Source: an uncultured Clostridia bacterium (lineage in GTDB: Bacteria; Bacillota; Clostridia; TANB77; CAG-508). Taken from it: a stretch of DNA of 32,000 nt. The stretch is taken from positions 1 through 32,000 of the forward strand of contig CALXJM010000004.1 in NCBI GenBank assembly GCA_944388625.1, written 5' to 3'. Both the position numbers and the translations under genes were made by a program. The notes under the pieces were generated by a model. That model was not told the DNA's origin. It ran no database searches and saw nothing but the letters and a program-made list of their open reading frames with translations. Positions 823 to 8,879 of this stretch are shown here, in pieces. The first letter of the stretch is position 1. Each line of letters starts with the position of its first letter.

Positions 823-829
823 ATAAAGT

Positions 830-862
830 AAAGGCAGATTTTAATCTGCCTTTATTTTTTTT
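830..862 (+). terminator. Rho-independent terminator after rpoC
   Basis: 10-bp stem aaaggcagat/atctgccttt (830-839 and 844-853) with a 4-nt loop, followed by a T8 run at 855-862. Confidence 0.8.
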
Positions 863-1081: not shown

Positions 1082-1576
1082 ATGAAAGAAAAGATTAAAA
1101 CAATTATTATTATTTTATTAGCAATTGCTGTAATAGTACTTACAGTACTATTTGTACAGGAAAAAATGAAAGAACCAGAACAAGCAGAAGTAGACATGGA
1201 CAAACTATTGCAAGAAGCCATTAGAGAAGTAGAACAAGGAAAACAAAACAATGTAGAACTACAAGAAGACTTTACAAGAAAAAACATTAGCGAAAAATTA
1301 AAAGAACCAAGAATGCTAGGAGACTTAGAAATAAACAATATTCAACTAGAAGCAAAAGACAATATAACAGTTATAACAGCAGATGTAACAAATAGGGGAG
1401 AAACAGTTGATGGAGACTATGAAATAGAAATAAAATTTGTAGACGAAGACGGAAACACAATTATAGAAATTTTATCTTATATAAATGAAGTACAACCAGG
1501 AGAAACAATATCTTTAAGCACATCAACACAAAGAGATTTTGCAAATGCCTATGACATGGAAATTGTAAAAAAATAA
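1082..1576 (+). CDS. Small N-terminally membrane-anchored protein with a C-terminal beta-sandwich-like domain; function unknown
   Basis: SD aaaggagg at 1068-1075, 6 nt before the ATG. One N-terminal TM helix (IIIILLAIAVIVLTVLFV). Stops 15 nt before the giant gene, so co-transcription is likely. Any resemblance to FxLYD-type domains rests on my memory only. Confidence 0.75.
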   Translation: MKEKIKTIIIILLAIAVIVLTVLFVQEKMKEPEQAEVDMDKLLQEAIREVEQGKQNNVELQEDFTRKNISEKLKEPRMLGDLEINNIQLEAKDNITVITADVTNRGETVDGDYEIEIKFVDEDGNTIIEILSYINEVQPGETISLSTSTQRDFANAYDMEIVKK

Positions 1577-1591
1577 AACAGGGGGACAGCC

Positions 1592-4500
1592 ATGAAAGAA
1601 AAGGGAATTACATTAGTAGCATTAGTTATAACAATTATTGTGCTACTAATTTTGGCAGGAATTACACTAGCAACATTAAATAGAGCTGGACTAATAGGAA
1701 AAACAAACGAAGCAAAAATACAAGCAGGTTTAAGAGCGGTTTACAATGGAGTAGAAGCCTATAAACTAACATTAGAACCAAGTGAAAATAGTGTAGTAAC
1801 AGTAAAAGACTTAGAAAATGAAAATCTCGTAACAAAAGTAACAGTAGCAGACACAAATAGAACTATAGGAATAATAAATAATTTAGAAACATTAGGAATT
1901 AAATCTGAACTAGGCGCAGGAGGAGAACAAGAAACAAGAACAGAAATAGACACAATTTTAAGCTTAAGTGATGCCTATGTAATAGACTATGAAGATGAAA
2001 CACTCTACTATATTGATGAAGGAATATGGAGTATTGAAGGAAGTACACATATTAGCGAAGTTTTACCAGAAAAAAGAATATTTACTATTGCATATGATGC
2101 AAATGGTGGAACTGATGCCCCAGCTAACCAAACAAAAACTGAAGGAGAAGACATTAGGCTTAGTACAAAAACTCCAACTAGAAGCGGTTACACATTTTCT
2201 GGCTGGAGCACCACTGAAGATGGAGTAGTACAATACAACCCAGGACAAATTTATAATAGAGATGAAAACTTAAACCTATTTGCCGTATGGTCAGCAAAAA
2301 CAAATATTGAATACAAAATAGAACACTATAAGCAAAACACACAGAAAAATGGATATGATTTAATAGAAACAGAAACAAGAAAAGGTTCAACAGGAGCACT
2401 AGTAACAGCTATTGCAAAAACATATTCAGGATTTACATATGTATCAAACATATCTACACCAGAAGGAAATATTAAAGAAGATGGAAGTTTGGTACTAAAA
2501 CTATATTACAATAGAAATAGCTATACAATTACATATGTTTTAGATGGTGGAACAAATAATAGTTCAAACCCAACAAGCTATGTATATGGAATAGGTGTAA
2601 CATTTGCAGAACCTACTAAAACAGGTTTTGAATTTGAAGGTTGGTATAAAGAACAAAGCTATACAAACAGAATAACATCAATAGGAACATCAGATGTAGG
2701 AAATATAACAATATATGCAAAATGGGTAATGCTAGAATCACCAGAACTAACATTAACATATGTAGAAGAAAATGGAGCAATAAAAGCAGTAGCAACAGAC
2801 AAAACAGGAACAGGAATAAACTATATAGAAAACCCAGATGGAACAAGAACCCCAGGAGATACATCAATTTACAATGTGACAAAAAATGGAACATACACAT
2901 TCAAAGCAGTAGATAACATGGGGCAAGAAACAACTCAAAGTATAGAAATAACAGAAATACAAGGATTTATAACAGAATGGAACATACCAGCAGACAACAC
3001 ACAAATAAAATTACCAATTATTAGTACAACAAACTTAAATGCAAATGTAGACTGGGGAGATGGAACAACTGAAGAAATAACAGGAACATTCCCAACACAC
3101 ACATATGCAAAAGCAGGCACATATGATATAAACATAACAGGAACAGTAGATAGATTTGGATATAATAGCTCTACAACCCCAACCGAAAGTAATAATTATA
3201 GTAATTACTACACATTTACACAATATGTAACAAAAGTAAAAGACTGGGGAAATATAGGAGCAACACAATTTGGATTTAGTCAATGCAAAAAATTGACTAG
3301 TATAGCAAGCCCAAGGGCAGAAAGCTTTAGAAATGTAACATCTTTTGCTAGTACATTTGAGGACTGTAGAGGACTAACCGGCTCGATTCCAGCCGAGTTG
3401 TTTGCGAACTGCCCAAATGTAACATCTTTTAAATATACTTTTGCAAACTGTAGTGGCCTAACAGGAGAAATTCCAGGTGACTTATTTGCAAGCAATCCAA
3501 ATGTAACTACTTTTGAAAGCACATTTTATGGATGCAGTGGACTAACAGGAGAAATTCCAGCTGAACTATTTGCAAACAACTCAAATGTAACTTCTTTTAG
3601 TAGTACATTTTCTAGCTGTAGTGGCCTAACCGGCACAATCCCAGGCGAGTTATTTGCAAACAACCCAAATGTAACTTCTTTTAGCTATACATTTCTTAAC
3701 TGTAGCGGCCTAACCGGAGCTATTCCAGGCGAGTTATTTGTGAACAGCCCAAATGTAACTTCTTTTGGTAGTACATTTTCTAGCTGTAGTGGCCTAACCG
3801 GCACAATCCCAGGCGAGTTATTTGCGAACTGCCCAAATGTAACGAATTTTAGCCATACATTTTCTAGCTGTAGCGGCCTAACTGGCTCTATTCCAGCTGA
3901 TTTATTTGTGAACTGCCCAAATGTAACGAATTTTAGCTATACATTTCTATACTGTAGCGGCCTAACTGGCTCTATTCCAGCTGATTTATTTGTGAACTGC
4001 CCAAATGTAACGAATTTTAGCTATACATTTCTATACTGTAGCGGCCTAACCGGCACAATCCCAGGCGAGTTATTTGCGAACAGCCCAAATGTAACTTCTT
4101 TTGTTAGTACATTTTCTTATTGTAGCGGCCTAACCGGCACAATCCCAGACAAGTTGTTCGCGAACAGCCCAAATGTAACGGATTTTGGTAGTACATTTTC
4201 TAGCTGTAGCGGACTAACTGGTTCTATTCCAGCTGAACTATTTGCAAACTGTCCTAATGTAACAGATTTTGATAGAACATTTGAATACTGTAGCAAATTA
4301 ACAAGTGCTAACATTGATATTGGATTTATAGGAAATTATATGTTTTATGGCTGTAATAGCTTAACCAATATAACAATATCAGACAAAGTAACTAGTATAG
4401 GAACAGACGCATTCTACTATAGTAGTTCTGGCACATTGGATACATATTTAATAACCAATAATGATGTTGCTAAAAACTATGATTGGACAGGTGATAAGAG

Positions 4501-7500
4501 AAACCTAGTTTCACCTGTACCAGAACTAACATTAACATACATAGCAGAAAATGGAGCAATAAAAGCAGTAGCAACAGATAAATCAGGAACAGGAATAAAC
4601 TATATAGAAAACCCAGATGGAACAAGAACCCCAGGAGACACATCAATATACAATGTACTAAAAAATGGAACATACACATTCAAAGCAGTAGATAACATGG
4701 GGCAAGAAACAACTCAAAGTATAGAAATAACAGAAATACAAGGACTAATAACAGAATGGAACATACCAGCAGACAATACACAAATAAAATTACCAATTAG
4801 TAGTACAACAAACTTAAATGCAAATGTAGACTGGGGAGATGGAACAAGTGAAGAAATAACAGGAACATTCCCAACACATACATATGCAAAAGCAGGCACA
4901 TATGATATAAGCATAACAGGAACAGTAGATAGATTTGGATATAATGAGTATTCTGAACTAACAGCAAGTGATAATTACTATACATTTACACAATATGTAA
5001 CAAAAGTAAAAGACTGGGGAAATATAGGAGCAACACAATTCGGGTTTAGCAGGTGTACAAATTTAATTAGTATAGTAAGCCCAAGGGTAGAAAGCTTTAG
5101 AAATGTAACATCTTTTGAATATACTTTTGCAAACTGTAGCGGACTAACAAGTATTCCAGCAAACTTATTTGCAAACAGCCCAAATGTAACTACTTTTAGA
5201 AGCACATTTAATAGATGTAGCGGCCTAACAGGAAATATTCCAGCAGACTTATTTGCAAATAATCCAAATGTAACTACTTTTCGTGGAACATTTTATGGCT
5301 GTAGCGGACTAACTGGAAGCATTCCAGCCGAACTGTTTGCAAATAATCCAAATGTAACAGATTTTTATACAACATTTTATGAATGTAGCGGACTAACGGG
5401 AGCTATTCCAGCCGAACTATTTGCAAATAACCCAAGTGTGACAACTTTTAATGGAACACTTTGGAATTGTAGCGGACTAACTGGAAGCATTCCAGCCGAA
5501 CTATTTGCAAAGAATCCAAATGTAACAGATTTTGGGTATACATTTTATAACTGTAGCGGACTAACAGGAAGTATCCCAGCAGACTTATTTGCAAATAATC
5601 CAAATGTAACAACTTTTTCATATACATTTCCATCCTGTAGCGGACTAACAGGAAGTATCCCAGCAGACTTATTTGCAAATAATCCAAATGTAACAACTTT
5701 TTCATATACATTTCAATCCTGTAGCGGACTAACAGGAAGTATTCCGGCCAAACTATTTGCAAACAATCCAAATGTAACTAATTTTAGTCATACATTTTGG
5801 AATTGTAGTGGCATAACAGGAGCTATTCCAGGAGACTTATTTGCAAATAATCCAAATGTAACTACTTTTTATGCAACATTTTATGAATGTAGCGGCCTAA
5901 CAGGAAATATCCCGGCAGAGTTATTTGCAAAGAATCCAAATGTAACAGATTTTGGGTATACATTTTCTTGGTGTGGTGGATTAACAGGAGAAATTTCAGC
6001 AAACTTATTTGCGAACAGCCCAAATGTAACTACTTTTTATGCAACATTTAATTCTTGTCATGGATTAACAGGAGAAATTCCAGCAAACTTATTTGCAAAT
6101 AACCCAAATGTAACAGATTTTAGTCATACATTTAATAATTGTGATAAACTAGAAGGAAGTATTCCAGCCGAACTATTTGCAAATAACCCAAATGTAACTA
6201 CTTTTGAAAGCACATTTTTGGACTGCCATCAATTAATGGGAAACATTCCAGCCGAACTATTTGCAAACTGCCCAAATGTAACTAATTTTACTAAAACATT
6301 TATAAACTGTAACAGATTAACAAGTGCAAATATTGATATTAACTTTATAGGAGATGAAATGTTTGATGGTTGCAATAGCTTAACAAATATAGCAATATCA
6401 GATAAAGTAACTAGTATAGGAACACAAGCATTCCGATATACTGGCACTGGCACATTAGGCACATATTTAACAACAAGCAATGAAGTGGCTCAAAATTATG
6501 ATTGGGCAGGAGATAGAAGAAACTTATTATCAACTGCACCAGAGCTAACACTAACTTATGTAGCAGAAGATGGAGCAATAAAAGCAGTAGCAACAGATAA
6601 ATCAGGAACAGGAATAAACTATATAGAAAACCCAGATGGAACAAGAACCCCAGGAGACACATCAATATACAATGTGTTAAAAAATGGAACATACACATTC
6701 AAAGCAGTAGACAATATGGGACAAGAAACAACTCAAAGTATAGAAATAACAGAAATACAAGGACTAATAACAGAATGGAACATACCAGCAGACAACACAC
6801 AAATAAAATTACCAATTAGTAGTACAACAAACTTAAATGCGAATGTAGACTGGGGAGATGGAACAAGTGAAGAAATAACAGGAACATTCCCAACACACAC
6901 ATATGCAAAAGCAGGCACATATGATATAAGCATAACAGGAACAGTAGGTAAATTTGGATATAATAGCAGTGCATCTCTATCAGAAACTAGTGATTACTAT
7001 ACATTTACCCAATATGTAACAAAAGTAAAAGATTGGGGTAATATAGGAGCAGTACAAATTGGATTTGCACATTGTATAAATTTAACAAGCATAGTAAGCC
7101 CAAGAGAAGAAAGCTTTAGAAGTGTAACAAGTTTTGAATATGCATTTAGGGACTGTAGCGGACTAACTGGCACAATTCCATCAGACTTATTTGCAAACAG
7201 CCCAAATGTAACAAGTTTTTATCAAACATTTGCTTACTGTAGTGGACTAACCGGAGCAATCCCAGCTGAACTATTTGCGAACTGCCCAAATGTAACAAAC
7301 TTCGGCTTGGTATTTATTTTCTGTAATAGTTTAACAGGAAGTATTCCAGCAGATTTATTTGCAAACTGCCCTAATGTAACATCTTTTAATAGAACATTTA
7401 CTGAATGTAGTGGATTAACAGGAAGTATTCCAGCTGAACTATTTGCAAACTGTCCTGATGTAACTACTTTCGAATTGATATTTTCTTACTGCAGAGGCTT

Positions 7501-8287
7501 AACTGGATCCATTCCAGCCGGATTATTTGCAAACTCTCCACAAGCAACTACTTTCAATCAAGCATTTTCATACTGTAGTGGATTAACCGGAAATATTCCA
7601 GCAGATTTATTTGCAAATTGCACCAAGGCAGTATCTTTCAGATATGCATTTGATGGTTGTAGTGGACTAACAGGAAATATTCCAGGAGAATTATTTGCAG
7701 ATTGCTATAGTGCAGAATCTTTTGAAAGGACATTTGATGGCTGTAGTGGATTAACAGGAAATATTCCAGCAGATTTATTTGCAAACTGCCCTAAAGCAAC
7801 TACTTTTGAATATACATTTAGGGACTGTAGTGGACTAACCGGCTCCATTCCAGCAGATTTATTTGCAAATTGCCCTAATGTAACTACTTTTGAATATACA
7901 TTTAATGAATGTAGTGGATTAATGGGAACAATTCCAGCTAACTTATTTGCAAACTGTTCTAATGTAACATCTTTTTCAGGTACATTTTCTAGTTGTAGAG
8001 GACTAACGGGAACAATTCCAAGCGGTTTATTTGCAAACTGCCCAAATGTAACAGATTTTTCAAATGTATTTGGTAGTTGTAGTGGACTAACAGGAAACAT
8101 TCCATCCAATTTATTTGCAAATAATCTAAAGGTAACAGATTTTATGAACACATTCTTTTACTGTGGCAATTTAACAGGAAATGCACCAGAACTATGGAAC
8201 AGAACAAATGTCACATCACACGATAATTGCTTCTCAGGTTGTACGAGACTAAGCAATTATTCATCTATACCAAGCGATTGGAAATAG
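1592..8287 (+). CDS. Giant (2,231 aa) surface repeat protein: a prepilin-like N-terminal segment, two Listeria-Bacteroides (Flg_new) repeats, then three [Ig-like + PKD-like + BspA/LRR-like 28-aa repeat array] modules
   Basis: Uninterrupted 6.7-kb ORF with SD gggggaca upstream. The N-terminus MKEKGITLVALVITIIVLLILAGITLATL resembles a class-III (prepilin) signal, but position +5 is Ala rather than Glu. FTIAYDANGG...GYTFSGW...LFAVWS (about 2081-2295) and YTITYVLDGG...GFEFEGWY...IYAKW (about 2522-2726) are Flg_new-type repeats. VDWGDGT...THTYAKAGTYDI.ITG is a PKD-like signature. About 40 copies of F..CSGLTG.IP..LFAN.PNVT.F..TF follow. Modules 1 and 2 end in classical LRR_5-like caps (F.GCNSLTNI.ISDKVTSIG..AF). 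Confidence 0.9.
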   Translation: MKEKGITLVALVITIIVLLILAGITLATLNRAGLIGKTNEAKIQAGLRAVYNGVEAYKLTLEPSENSVVTVKDLENENLVTKVTVADTNRTIGIINNLETLGIKSELGAGGEQETRTEIDTILSLSDAYVIDYEDETLYYIDEGIWSIEGSTHISEVLPEKRIFTIAYDANGGTDAPANQTKTEGEDIRLSTKTPTRSGYTFSGWSTTEDGVVQYNPGQIYNRDENLNLFAVWSAKTNIEYKIEHYKQNTQKNGYDLIETETRKGSTGALVTAIAKTYSGFTYVSNISTPEGNIKEDGSLVLKLYYNRNSYTITYVLDGGTNNSSNPTSYVYGIGVTFAEPTKTGFEFEGWYKEQSYTNRITSIGTSDVGNITIYAKWVMLESPELTLTYVEENGAIKAVATDKTGTGINYIENPDGTRTPGDTSIYNVTKNGTYTFKAVDNMGQETTQSIEITEIQGFITEWNIPADNTQIKLPIISTTNLNANVDWGDGTTEEITGTFPTHTYAKAGTYDINITGTVDRFGYNSSTTPTESNNYSNYYTFTQYVTKVKDWGNIGATQFGFSQCKKLTSIASPRAESFRNVTSFASTFEDCRGLTGSIPAELFANCPNVTSFKYTFANCSGLTGEIPGDLFASNPNVTTFESTFYGCSGLTGEIPAELFANNSNVTSFSSTFSSCSGLTGTIPGELFANNPNVTSFSYTFLNCSGLTGAIPGELFVNSPNVTSFGSTFSSCSGLTGTIPGELFANCPNVTNFSHTFSSCSGLTGSIPADLFVNCPNVTNFSYTFLYCSGLTGSIPADLFVNCPNVTNFSYTFLYCSGLTGTIPGELFANSPNVTSFVSTFSYCSGLTGTIPDKLFANSPNVTDFGSTFSSCSGLTGSIPAELFANCPNVTDFDRTFEYCSKLTSANIDIGFIGNYMFYGCNSLTNITISDKVTSIGTDAFYYSSSGTLDTYLITNNDVAKNYDWTGDKRNLVSPVPELTLTYIAENGAIKAVATDKSGTGINYIENPDGTRTPGDTSIYNVLKNGTYTFKAVDNMGQETTQSIEITEIQGLITEWNIPADNTQIKLPISSTTNLNANVDWGDGTSEEITGTFPTHTYAKAGTYDISITGTVDRFGYNEYSELTASDNYYTFTQYVTKVKDWGNIGATQFGFSRCTNLISIVSPRVESFRNVTSFEYTFANCSGLTSIPANLFANSPNVTTFRSTFNRCSGLTGNIPADLFANNPNVTTFRGTFYGCSGLTGSIPAELFANNPNVTDFYTTFYECSGLTGAIPAELFANNPSVTTFNGTLWNCSGLTGSIPAELFAKNPNVTDFGYTFYNCSGLTGSIPADLFANNPNVTTFSYTFPSCSGLTGSIPADLFANNPNVTTFSYTFQSCSGLTGSIPAKLFANNPNVTNFSHTFWNCSGITGAIPGDLFANNPNVTTFYATFYECSGLTGNIPAELFAKNPNVTDFGYTFSWCGGLTGEISANLFANSPNVTTFYATFNSCHGLTGEIPANLFANNPNVTDFSHTFNNCDKLEGSIPAELFANNPNVTTFESTFLDCHQLMGNIPAELFANCPNVTNFTKTFINCNRLTSANIDINFIGDEMFDGCNSLTNIAISDKVTSIGTQAFRYTGTGTLGTYLTTSNEVAQNYDWAGDRRNLLSTAPELTLTYVAEDGAIKAVATDKSGTGINYIENPDGTRTPGDTSIYNVLKNGTYTFKAVDNMGQETTQSIEITEIQGLITEWNIPADNTQIKLPISSTTNLNANVDWGDGTSEEITGTFPTHTYAKAGTYDISITGTVGKFGYNSSASLSETSDYYTFTQYVTKVKDWGNIGAVQIGFAHCINLTSIVSPREESFRSVTSFEYAFRDCSGLTGTIPSDLFANSPNVTSFYQTFAYCSGLTGAIPAELFANCPNVTNFGLVFIFCNSLTGSIPADLFANCPNVTSFNRTFTECSGLTGSIPAELFANCPDVTTFELIFSYCRGLTGSIPAGLFANSPQATTFNQAFSYCSGLTGNIPADLFANCTKAVSFRYAFDGCSGLTGNIPGELFADCYSAESFERTFDGCSGLTGNIPADLFANCPKATTFEYTFRDCSGLTGSIPADLFANCPNVTTFEYTFNECSGLMGTIPANLFANCSNVTSFSGTFSSCRGLTGTIPSGLFANCPNVTDFSNVFGSCSGLTGNIPSNLFANNLKVTDFMNTFFYCGNLTGNAPELWNRTNVTSHDNCFSGCTRLSNYSSIPSDWK
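2741..4519 (+). repeat. Mega-module 1 of the giant gene (593 aa; about 12 LRR-like units)
   Basis: Starts at ccagaactaacattaacatatgtagaagaaaatgg (PELTLTYVEENG). The first roughly 400 nt are nearly identical to 4520-4920 and 6539-6940. Confidence 0.9.
3868..4050 (+). repeat. Perfect 84-bp in-frame tandem duplication (2.2 copies) inside the module 1 array
   Basis: 3868-3966 is identical base for base to 3952-4050 (offset 84). It encodes SIPADLFVNCPNVTNFSYTFLYCSGLTG twice. Confidence 0.9.
4520..6538 (+). repeat. Mega-module 2 of the giant gene (673 aa; about 15 LRR-like units)
   Basis: Starts at PELTLTYIAENG. The head of about 136 aa differs from module 1 at about 8 residues and from module 3 at about 4 residues. 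Confidence 0.9.
5551..5742 (+). repeat. Near-perfect 84-bp in-frame tandem duplication (2.3 copies, 1 mismatch) inside the module 2 array
   Basis: 5551-5634 versus 5635-5718 differ only at ttccatc/ttcaatc (Pro/Gln). A third partial copy runs 5719-5742. Confidence 0.9.
6539..8287 (+). repeat. Mega-module 3 of the giant gene (583 aa; about 13-14 more degenerate LRR-like units, no LRR_5 cap)
   Basis: Starts at PELTLTYVAEDG and runs to the stop codon. Its units are more divergent (QATTF, KAVSF, SAESF, KATTF replace NVT.F). Confidence 0.85.
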
Positions 8288-8299
8288 GAAACTGAAACC

Positions 8300-8326
8300 G
8301 TATGGGCGAACGATGCATACCCATAC
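8300..8326. repeat. GC-rich REP-like palindrome, degenerate copy (GTATGGGCGAAC...CCCATAC)
   Basis: gtatggg (8300-8306) pairs with cccatac (8320-8326). The left half shares GGGCGAAC with the other copies. Confidence 0.6.
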
Positions 8327-8380
8327 AAAATTACAACAGAATTAATATTAGAGACAAACAATAACAGCAGAGGACCTTAA

Positions 8381-8401
8381 CGGGCGAACAATGTTCGCCC
8401 G
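8381..8401. repeat. GC-rich REP-like palindrome (perfect 10-1-10)
   Basis: cgggcgaaca-a-tgttcgcccg, read directly from the sequence. Confidence 0.85.
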
Positions 8402-8599
8402 CTCTTCGTAGAAATTGCTAAAACAAAATCGAAATAACAGCAATATGTGAAAAAACTGCGTCCTCCAAGGCGTTAAAGAAAGAGGAAAAAATAAGGAAAA
8501 TGAACACACTAAAATGCAGAAAAAGCAAAAAAATCACAAGGTCGGACTCGTTTTTCCCATAAAGACTGTTATTTCTAAAAATAAAACAGCAGAGCAACC

Positions 8600-8626
8600 G
8601 TAGGGGCGAACAATGTTCGCCCCTAC
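8600..8626. repeat. GC-rich REP-like palindrome (perfect 13-1-13, begins with GTAG)
   Basis: gtaggggcgaaca-a-tgttcgcccctac. Confidence 0.85.
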
Positions 8627-8676
8627 AGATTGAACAGAATTAATGTTAGCAACAAATAATATCAGGCAGAGCACAT

Positions 8677-8701
8677 GTAGGGGCGAACATTGTTCGCCCG
8701 C
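8677..8701. repeat. GC-rich REP-like palindrome (9-1-9 core, begins with GTAG)
   Basis: gtag-gggcgaaca-t-tgttcgccc-gc. Confidence 0.85.
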
Positions 8702-8837: not shown

Positions 8838-8879
8838 ATATTATATAATTAAAGAGACACATACAAAGGAGGAATGTAT

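Follow-up and report, generated by a model that had tools for sequence, protein, structure and literature searches.

A 2,231-residue BspA/DUF285 adhesin-like protein with a prepilin-type N-terminus: a candidate giant modular pilin of an uncultured Clostridia bacterium

Type IV pilins are synthesized with a class III signal. The signal ends in Gly or Ala, and Glu at position +5 (Glu5) is "often, but not always" present. The protein is inserted via SRP (signal recognition particle) and Sec with its leader in the cytoplasm, then cut by the prepilin peptidase after the Gly or Ala at -1. The first parts of the α1 helices (α1N) form the filament core, and filaments grow from tip to base with a capping subunit that has no Glu5 (PMC10191384). 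In modular pilins such as PilB (vWA) and PilC (lectin) of Streptococcus sanguinis, adhesive non-pilus modules are grafted behind the class III signal and helix. Modular pilins are thought to be exposed at the tip, and the extreme case in a survey that required the pilin signature IPR012902 was a protein of 860 amino acids (aa) in which one motif is repeated 12 times (Raynaud et al. 2021, PMC8179133). This study concerns a much larger protein of 2,231 aa (the giant protein), encoded in a 32,000-nucleotide (nt) stretch of DNA from an uncultured Clostridia bacterium (contig CALXJM010000004.1 of assembly GCA_944388625.1, positions 1 to 32,000; hereafter the window). A first-pass annotation of the window had proposed that it might be a giant modular pilin.

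The giant protein has the same arrangement as the S. sanguinis proteins, a class III signal and helix followed by adhesive modules, and the same role is predicted for it, that of an adhesin on a type IVa pilus with PilT in a monoderm host. S. sanguinis-type modular pilins have a complete pilin fold and pass IPR012902, whereas the giant protein has the helix only and its pilin signature is sub-threshold. The largest protein of the survey (860 aa) compares with 2,231 aa here and 2,491 aa in a relative (PMC8179133). The helix is that of the major pilin and not that of a dedicated minor pilin, the gene lies outside the pilus operon, and there are several paralogues per sampled genome. Since it fails the IPR012902 signature, the whole pilin-tagged family would have escaped the survey. 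The reading we prefer, and to which we give about an even chance, is that of a giant leucine-rich repeat (LRR) adhesin of the BspA/DUF285 type whose prepilin-type N-terminus would make it dependent on pilus machinery. The sequence comparisons give strong support to a type IV prepilin signal, behind which the α1 helix of this lineage's major pilin is present in full. "Giant modular pilin" is the best-supported description, though unproven, with pilin likeness limited to the helix.

The body of the giant protein resembles a second known group, the BspA/DUF285 proteins of Bacteroidales and Mycoplasma. The 28-aa coils (FxxCxxLTGxIPxxLFxNxxxVTxF), the preceding PKD-like domain and the cap (...NYxxIPxxWK) are the same. 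These homologues are lipoproteins or Sec-secreted proteins (LAAC or LASC lipoboxes), whereas the giant protein has a pilin-type N-terminus, and the module that is triplicated in the giant protein is single in the homologues that were read through. Literature searches joining DUF285 with pilin returned unrelated Lactococcus papers only. Pili of uncultured gut Clostridia have also been described for a TANB77 cluster ("pilin 938"), but that cluster is Tad-type (TadZ/CpaE, CpaF, TadB/C), unlike the PilB/PilT/PilC type IVa-like operon of the window's relatives; the words "prepilin" and "N-terminal" occur nowhere in the text of that paper (Kim et al. 2024, PMC11680825).

The giant protein begins MKEKG-ITLVALVITIIVLLILAGITLATL, with Ala at +5. 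Translation and a hydropathy scan agreed with the first-pass annotation that this is the only hydrophobic N-terminal element; 19-residue segments with a score >1.6 started at residues 1-18 only. A short hydrophilic leader ending in Gly is followed by a hydrophobic run of 24 residues (aa 6-29), in line with class III signals, whose leader ends in Gly or Ala and precedes an α1N of 20-25 mainly hydrophobic residues. N_methyl (PF07963) was the top Pfam match, in register, at 16.3 bits against a cut-off of 21.2 (E 0.0074), and GspG was the top NCBIfam match, also in register (E 0.0018). A control pilin encoded in a pilus operon of a relative (L234:5567-6031; L numbers designate related loci) scored 16.9 bits on N_methyl and was also sub-threshold. 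Because this operon pilin shares the shortfall, the low score is no evidence against the giant protein; it suggests that standard pilin annotation misses this clade's pilins. A profile of the N-terminus gave three matches in the PDB, all of them type IV pilins aligned in register (7tgg, 9lab), including Geobacter PilA-N and MshA, but these were weak (E 0.1-0.3). A literature search with the N-terminal motif string found no paper.

Hundreds of small proteins (90-280 aa) share the first 40 residues with the giant protein at ~70% identity. A consensus was derived from 134 distinct small and 90 distinct large (>=300 aa) proteins anchored at the cleavage site, using a collecting pattern that limited -1 to Gly, Ala or Ser, allowed Glu at +5 and left +10 to +40 unconstrained. 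Small and large proteins share the consensus GITLIALVITIIVLLILAGVxIAxLTGxNGILxxAxxAK, which is conserved to ~+40, well beyond the membrane span. Within the limits of the pattern, Gly was found at -1 in 134/134 small and 88/90 large proteins, the other two having Ala. The leader is 6-7 aa long in small pilins. Ala was at +5 in 133/134 small proteins and Glu was never seen, although the pattern allowed it. Ala instead of Glu at +5 in the operon-encoded major pilins of this clade is unusual among bacterial type IVa pili. The giant protein shares its lack of Glu5, a bulky extra domain and a predicted tip location, at which a salt bridge to a further subunit is not required, with the tip subunits GspK and PilK/PilX (PMC10191384, PMC8179133), but has no sequence similarity to GspK. 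As the major pilins also have Ala5, we take the missing Glu5 to be a trait of the lineage and not the mark of a tip subunit. The GITL[VI]AL motif of the giant protein is the operon pilins' own, and the N-terminus is supported as a signal of the prepilin (class III) type.

Small proteins of this kind are encoded in pilus operons. A 150-aa relative of the N-terminus (P0079) lies inside a complete type IV pilus operon with the order pilMN, pilO-like gene, small membrane protein, pilin, pilD-like gene, minor-pilin-like gene, pilB, pilT and pilC. A PilB search generated 37 species (L091-L127), nearly all with a pilin between pilMN/pilO and pilD-pilB-pilT-pilC. The query came from L081 and reached a sister group only, with no overlap with the window's relatives. 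A search with PilT of "Clostridium sp. CAG:440" did reach the relatives and generated 80 further loci (L208-L287) with such pilins in the operon. The N-terminus of the giant protein is thus that of operon pilins in >110 loci, six close relatives included. PilB and PilC were found in 80/80 PilT loci, a PilD-like protein in 66/80 and PilMN/PilO in 61/80; the missing genes may be due to the fact that some loci are on short contigs with an end close to PilT. Directly 5' of the pilD-like gene are one or two pilin genes (69-185 aa), and their products start (Q/E)KG-ITL[VI]ALVITIIVLLILAG, L234 (e.g. 5567-6488) being a clean example. A match to TIGR02538 (E 1e-122) assigns PilB of the clade to type IVa, and the pilus should be retractile because PilT is present.

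The genomes nearest to the window by DnaB (78-79% identity) are those of uncultured gut Clostridia, namely "Clostridium sp. CAG:440", Ca. Merdicola and metagenome-assembled genomes (MAGs) from animal and human guts. We take these relatives (CAG-numbered "Clostridium sp." MAGs and Ca. Merdicola) to belong to order TANB77 of GTDB. Six of the nearest MAGs carry the PilB/T/C operon together with such pilins (Table 1). The findings that the first-pass annotation had named as speaking against its reading were absence of the machinery, an ordinary signal score and absence of the motif from pilins. None of these was obtained: relatives have the machinery, the motif is shared, and the sub-threshold score is shared by an operon pilin. 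Two side observations concern the operons themselves. In an older assembly of Clostridium sp. CAG:440 (L179 2319-3666) pilC appears split into open reading frames (ORFs) of 193 and 302 aa, which is a frameshift or assembly error. The N-terminus of PilB in L234 (8327-9958) matches the MshE-type c-di-GMP-binding motif weakly and below threshold (29.8 bits against 38), which hints that pilus assembly might be regulated by c-di-GMP.

The likeness to pilins ends early. In an AF2 model of aa 1-165, helices 4-32 and 34-60 form a 57-residue block with a pLDDT (model confidence) of 74-97, and from residue 77 the pLDDT is below 50, leaving the helix as the only confident part. A leave-one-out profile scored the giant protein at 76 bits, entirely from aa 1-60. 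Judged as a "lollipop" fold, in which an α1 of ~53 residues packs on a β-sheet head, only the stick (helix 4-60) is predicted confidently; judged as a modular pilin, the extra domains are clear while the pilin signature is sub-threshold and the helix alone is homologous. Since homology ends at about residue 60, the N-terminus is better described as an α1-helix tag than as a full pilin module. The first-pass reading is supported in part: the N-terminus is near-identical to that of operon pilins, and beyond that point no pilin head was detected. In this respect the giant protein resembles the helix-only pilins of 69-89 aa encoded in some operons of the clade. Such short pilins are encoded in many operons of the sister group (L100-L127, ~2-3.5 kb 5' of pilB); they correspond approximately to the α1 helix alone and are reminiscent of Geobacter PilA-N.

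The domains behind the helix were all as first described. The 2,231-aa ORF is present with an ATG start, and Pfam domains above cut-off were Flg_new (two stretches), PKD (three stretches), LRR_5 and DUF285, so of the domains proposed for a profile check only N_methyl fell short. The two Flg_new repeats, separated by a β-rich segment, and the three stalks of immunoglobulin-like (Ig) and PKD domains were recovered by Pfam and repeat analysis. DUF285 (PF03382) scored 107.2 bits against a gathering score of 25 and LRR_5 (PF13306) 57.2 bits against 27.7, as is expected of a BspA/DUF285 protein. The motif LF[AV] occurs 37 times, always at a spacing of 28 residues within each array, making the earlier count of about 40 LRR-like units a fair one and giving the regular solenoid of 28-aa repeats that is typical of BspA/DUF285 proteins. 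The C-terminal DUF285 cap (aa 2101-2222, ...IPSDWK; PF03382, E 5.5e-31) is kept in homologues. The stalk of super-repeat 2 is 87.5% identical to that of super-repeat 1 in amino acids and 90% in nucleotides, and the stalk of super-repeat 3 is 92% identical to that of super-repeat 2 in amino acids. At the DNA level the three stalks are 90-93.5% identical, and these values (87-92% for amino acids) make the triplication a recent one.

The AF2 model of super-repeat 1 had a mean pLDDT of 87 (~98 in the solenoid) and showed two β-sandwiches followed by a regular solenoid. Structure prediction thus bore out the helix and one Ig-PKD-solenoid module, and for aa 1-165 it gave nothing confident after residue 77. 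In a Foldseek search of the PDB the Ig and PKD parts found matches, PKD at a TM of ~0.5, and the solenoid had no match at E<=0.001. Other means of attachment were looked for and, in agreement with the first-pass annotation, Pfam, motif and hydropathy scans found none: the giant protein has no lipobox, its only LPXTG-like strings are two internal LPISS, neither of them functional, the Pfam scan contained no SLH, choline-binding or wall-anchor domain, and there is no C-terminal transmembrane anchor. It is therefore not classified as a sortase-anchored protein, a lipoprotein or an SLH/choline-binding wall protein. Membership in the NCBIfam family CPR_pilus_PamR was rejected, as its score of 56 bits against a cut-off of 300 reflects similarity of the PKD-like domain. 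An exact look-up of the 2,231-aa protein found no record, and an exact search of species genomes with 90 nt of DNA had no match. Six independent metagenome contigs match the window from 1 to 3705-5627 at 94-99.4% nt identity; all six are short-read assemblies and break inside the repeats of the giant gene. The giant gene is real and no assembly artefact.

Table 1. Features of the giant gene and its surroundings (positions in the window), and related genomes with a pilus operon.
Feature	Position	Strand	Description
Giant gene	1592..8287	+	Pilin-tagged BspA/DUF285 adhesin (predicted), 2,231 aa, 240.6 kDa, pI 4.4, ATG start
Leader peptide MKEKG, aa 1-5	1592..1606	+	Predicted prepilin-peptidase cut after Gly5
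Hydrophobic α1N, aa 6-29, ITLVALVITIIVLLILAGITLATL	1607..1678	+	Ala at +5; consensus as in operon-encoded major pilins
Full predicted α1 helix, aa 4-60	1601..1771	+	Sole pilin-homologous part; AF2 and profile
Linker or poorly predicted region, aa 61-163	1772..2080	+	pLDDT <50 from residue 77; pilin head not detected
Two Flg_new (Listeria-Bacteroides) repeats, aa 164-231 and ~311-378	2081..2725	+	PF09479, E 2.8e-27; TIGR02543
Super-repeat 1, aa 384-976	2741..4519	+	Ig-like, PKD, ~12 DUF285 28-aa coils, LRR_5-like cap
Super-repeat 2, aa 977-1649	4520..6538	+	~14 coils
Super-repeat 3, aa 1650-2231	6539..8284	+	~13 coils, then DUF285 C-terminal cap
Intrinsic terminator after rpoC	825..858	+	15-bp stem, 4-nt loop, T-run; upstream edge of inserted island
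164-aa single-pass membrane protein	1082..1576	+	C-terminal FxLYD domain; NF038353 FxLYD_dom, 29.3 bits against cut-off 23
148-aa single-pass membrane protein (orf148)	8874..9320	+	Last island gene before gdpP
Operon MAGs (with their related loci)			CAG:440 L006/L208; UMGS1673 L009/L212; E03_bin62 L005/L215
Operon MAGs, continued			CANEEJ L002/L231 (nearest, 79% DnaB); BRZ_IE_bin33 L022/L252; BRZ_HF_bin22 L012/L272

The giant protein is no one-off. With a profile of the N-terminal module, 33,680 representatives of clusters formed at 50% identity were matched at E<=1e-3, and at E<=1e-10 there were still 24,922, so that the search for proteins with the same N-terminus proposed in the first-pass annotation produced tens of thousands of them. 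Nearly all of the matches in a first search (n=120) were without a Pfam domain or a name. Among 80 genome loci, 100 complete tagged ORFs had a median length of 393 aa, many being of 300-715 aa, and one had 2,491 aa (L128). Their C-terminal parts are diverse: GLUG was found by Pfam, and LRR_5, RCC1-like, β-helix and other types were seen by eye. The closest homologues of the giant protein's body have a single Ig-PKD-DUF285 module and 650-1,030 aa. Many begin with the same pilin-type N-terminus, those of Bacteroidales begin with lipoprotein signals, and the name, where there is one, is "BspA family leucine-rich repeat surface protein". These comparisons place the giant protein, with its triplicated module, at the extreme of an architecture that is established though unannotated.

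Two kinds of variation were seen in tagged genes of relatives. L191 (3102-12750) has four tandem paralogues of 657, 420, 413 and 468 aa with an identical N-terminus for >40 residues (...GVALATLTGNSSIIDNANYAV), and such identical 5' ends could permit recombination that swaps C-terminal modules. Other tagged genes are interrupted directly after the helix (e.g. ...LLILARSNI*, ~30-50 aa), as in L004 (~1004), L034 (~14649 and ~16430) and L030 (3636-3935 and 4312-6183). The interruptions could reflect errors of assembly, pseudogenes or a switch.

Under the preferred reading, that of an adhesin displayed on pili, the basic leader MKEK would stay in the cytoplasm while Sec inserts the hydrophobic helix and exports the body. 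The PilD-like protein of the pilus operon would cut after Gly5. The PilB/PilC/PilMNO machine could then load the protein into a retractile pilus, because, once mature, it has the major pilin's own helix. Its most probable place would be at the tip, as the first subunit, for which Glu5 is not needed; less probably it would be an occasional body subunit on a flexible linker. The three Ig-PKD stalks with their LRR solenoids would provide the surface for binding at the fibre's end.

Several findings weigh against pilus display. No pilus gene lies within the window, and the operon is known from the genomes of relatives. The N_methyl score is below its cut-off. A globular pilin head was not detected in the AF2 model of aa 1-165, and the profile was silent over aa 61-400. 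Sampled genomes have several tagged proteins, some in tandem, a number beyond what a pilus tip would seem to require, and the tagged genes that were inspected are located outside pilus operons. A cargo of 240 kDa would have to cross the cell wall along with the fibre. The peptidase is a further point. At its N-terminus the PilD-like protein (L234 6532-7377; L081 11022-11831) carries A24_N_bact, a zinc-finger/methylase domain (E 5e-30), but its membrane half gave no Peptidase_A24 match even at E<=10. A review describes two Asp residues of prepilin peptidases as universally conserved (PMC10191384). In 111 PilD-like homologues the first candidate catalytic position, in GIDKE, has Asp in 89% and Glu in 8%, and the second, in FDTITLK, has Asp in only 68%. 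Given the invariant Gly-1, cleavage in the clade is plausible, though unproven, as is the predicted cut after Gly5 by the PilD-like protein.

The main alternative is use of the helix solely as an N-terminal transmembrane anchor, cleaved or not, in a protein that is never polymerised. The lineage would reuse the pilin helix as a general anchor for surface proteins, and the 2,231-aa body, perhaps 50-70 nm long when extended, would span the wall and expose its LRR arrays, a purpose that the long stalk design suits. Homology confined to the helix, a PilD-like protein without a recognisable peptidase domain, the position of the giant gene between rpoC and gdpP and of the inspected tagged genes outside the pilus operon, and the size and variety of the family (24,922-33,680 clusters, several proteins per genome) are all in its favour. 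A plain anchor, however, would need neither an invariant Gly-1 nor a short pilin-type leader. The extracytoplasmic part of α1 (+25 to +40, ...LTGxNGILxxAxxAK) is conserved and common to the major pilins, an α1N equal to that of the major pilin would be hard to exclude from the assembly machine, and relatives of 300-400 aa would hardly reach through a Gram-positive wall. We regard an anchor function alone as possible but rather unlikely, and sequence does not separate it from pilus display.

A broader version of pilus display would take in the whole family. The Glu5-less α1 helix of the major pilin might be a general N-terminal address tag that directs many unrelated surface proteins per genome to the retractile pilus machine, served by a prepilin peptidase so diverged that its catalytic domain can no longer be recognised. 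The cargoes would be adhesins, perhaps also enzymes, of up to 2,200-2,500 aa. This would be a sorting route in monoderms comparable to the archaeal bindosome; we put it forward tentatively and consider it somewhat doubtful. Archaeal class III proteins and the bindosome of Sulfolobus likewise have a pilin-type tag on many non-pilin surface proteins (PMC3047682), but the bindosome is archaeal, its peptidase is PibD and its cargo is sugar-binding, and homology with the giant protein is limited to the layout of the signal.

The same precedent from archaea, where the Bas system assembles sugar-binding proteins that have class III signals (PMC3047682), invites the idea that the machine acts like type II secretion or a bindosome, and that tagged proteins are pulled from the membrane, pushed through the wall, then shed or left loosely attached. 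The tag does occur on many cargo modules, some of them, judged by eye, of non-adhesin type, and PilB matches the bindosome ATPase BasE weakly, alongside many other related ATPases. A release mechanism is not visible, though, as a PilD-type cut would leave the helix on the mature protein; the operon is laid out as that of a type IVa pilus with PilT and not as a secretion system; and there is no experimental precedent in monoderm bacteria. We consider assisted export of this kind improbable. An ordinary Sec signal peptide or a chance resemblance, with an N-terminus unrelated to pili, would account for the PF07963 score below the gathering score and for a window without pilus genes, but the hydrophobic run of 24 residues without an AxA-type site is atypical for signal peptidase I, 70-90% identity over 25-40 residues links it to pilins adjoining pilD/pilB in >110 species, and the operon pilin tested has the same shortfall, making this explanation very improbable and close to refuted.

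The giant gene lies in otherwise housekeeping, Clostridium-like DNA of ~28% GC that includes the 3' end of rpoC (40-822), gdpP, rplI, dnaB, tilS, ftsH, nrdDG and others. Phage origin was rejected, as among 2.9 million viral contigs there were four marginal matches, at contig ends. The gap between rpoC and gdpP is 8.7 kb in the window and ~0.1-0.7 kb in many DnaB relatives. It contains the gene for the FxLYD protein and the giant gene, then non-coding DNA that includes GC-rich palindromes, and orf148. The 15 nt between the FxLYD gene and the ATG of the giant gene, correctly noted in the first-pass annotation, contain a ribosome-binding site (GGGGGA), and the two genes are probably co-transcribed. 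A promoter scan of the window did no better than on shuffled sequence. Nothing relevant on FxLYD was found in the literature.

Relatives have other large surface proteins at this site. In L009 (UMGS1673) the gap (1258-7035) contains a 1,422-aa Flg_new protein between two FxLYD proteins, and the N-terminus of the former is pilin-like but more divergent. In the gap of L030 (3636-6681) a pilin-like stub of 99 aa is accompanied by an ORF of 623 aa and an FxLYD protein, and in that of L012 (74-5593) there are a β-helix protein of >1,584 aa and an FxLYD protein. This makes the rpoC-gdpP site a variable hot spot for surface proteins. In L144 (9952-12558) an FxLYD protein adjoins a 694-aa pilin-tagged protein, and FxLYD proteins are recurrent neighbours of large surface-protein genes (L009, L012, L030, L144). 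The product of orf148 has no Pfam or NCBIfam match; the gene sits where L009 has its second FxLYD protein.

A 19-bp GC-rich palindrome, GGGCGAAC-NNT-GTTCGCCC, is present in four perfect copies and one degenerate copy at 8300-8700 and 9389-9407. All copies lie in the non-coding DNA from the giant gene to gdpP, flanking orf148, and belong to an imperfect direct repeat of ~300 bp. No copy is expected by chance, and none occurs elsewhere in the window or in 287 related loci. The palindromes may be REP/MITE-like hairpins or remnants of the insertion of the island. The neighbouring gdpP gene (c-di-AMP phosphodiesterase, 9538-11494) is split into ORFs of 552 and 88 aa in different frames, and the break is just 3' of a stretch rich in A (11170-11185). 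Either a sequencing error has produced a frameshift or the gene is a genuine pseudogene; an alternative genetic code was rejected because of the TAA stop and the change of frame between the two parts.

If the giant protein is loaded onto pili, it would be ~2.6 times as long as the 860-aa extreme of the survey, and a bare α1 helix would suffice as carrier. Current pilin HMMs (hidden Markov models) miss the whole group. Glu5 is considered key for the docking of subunits, and a clade that lacks it offers a natural test of type IV filament assembly. The N-terminal profile exposes ~25,000-34,000 tag-bearing clusters from uncultured bacteria that are common in human and animal guts. The tagged proteins may be a large part of how these bacteria stick to food particles, mucus and other cells.

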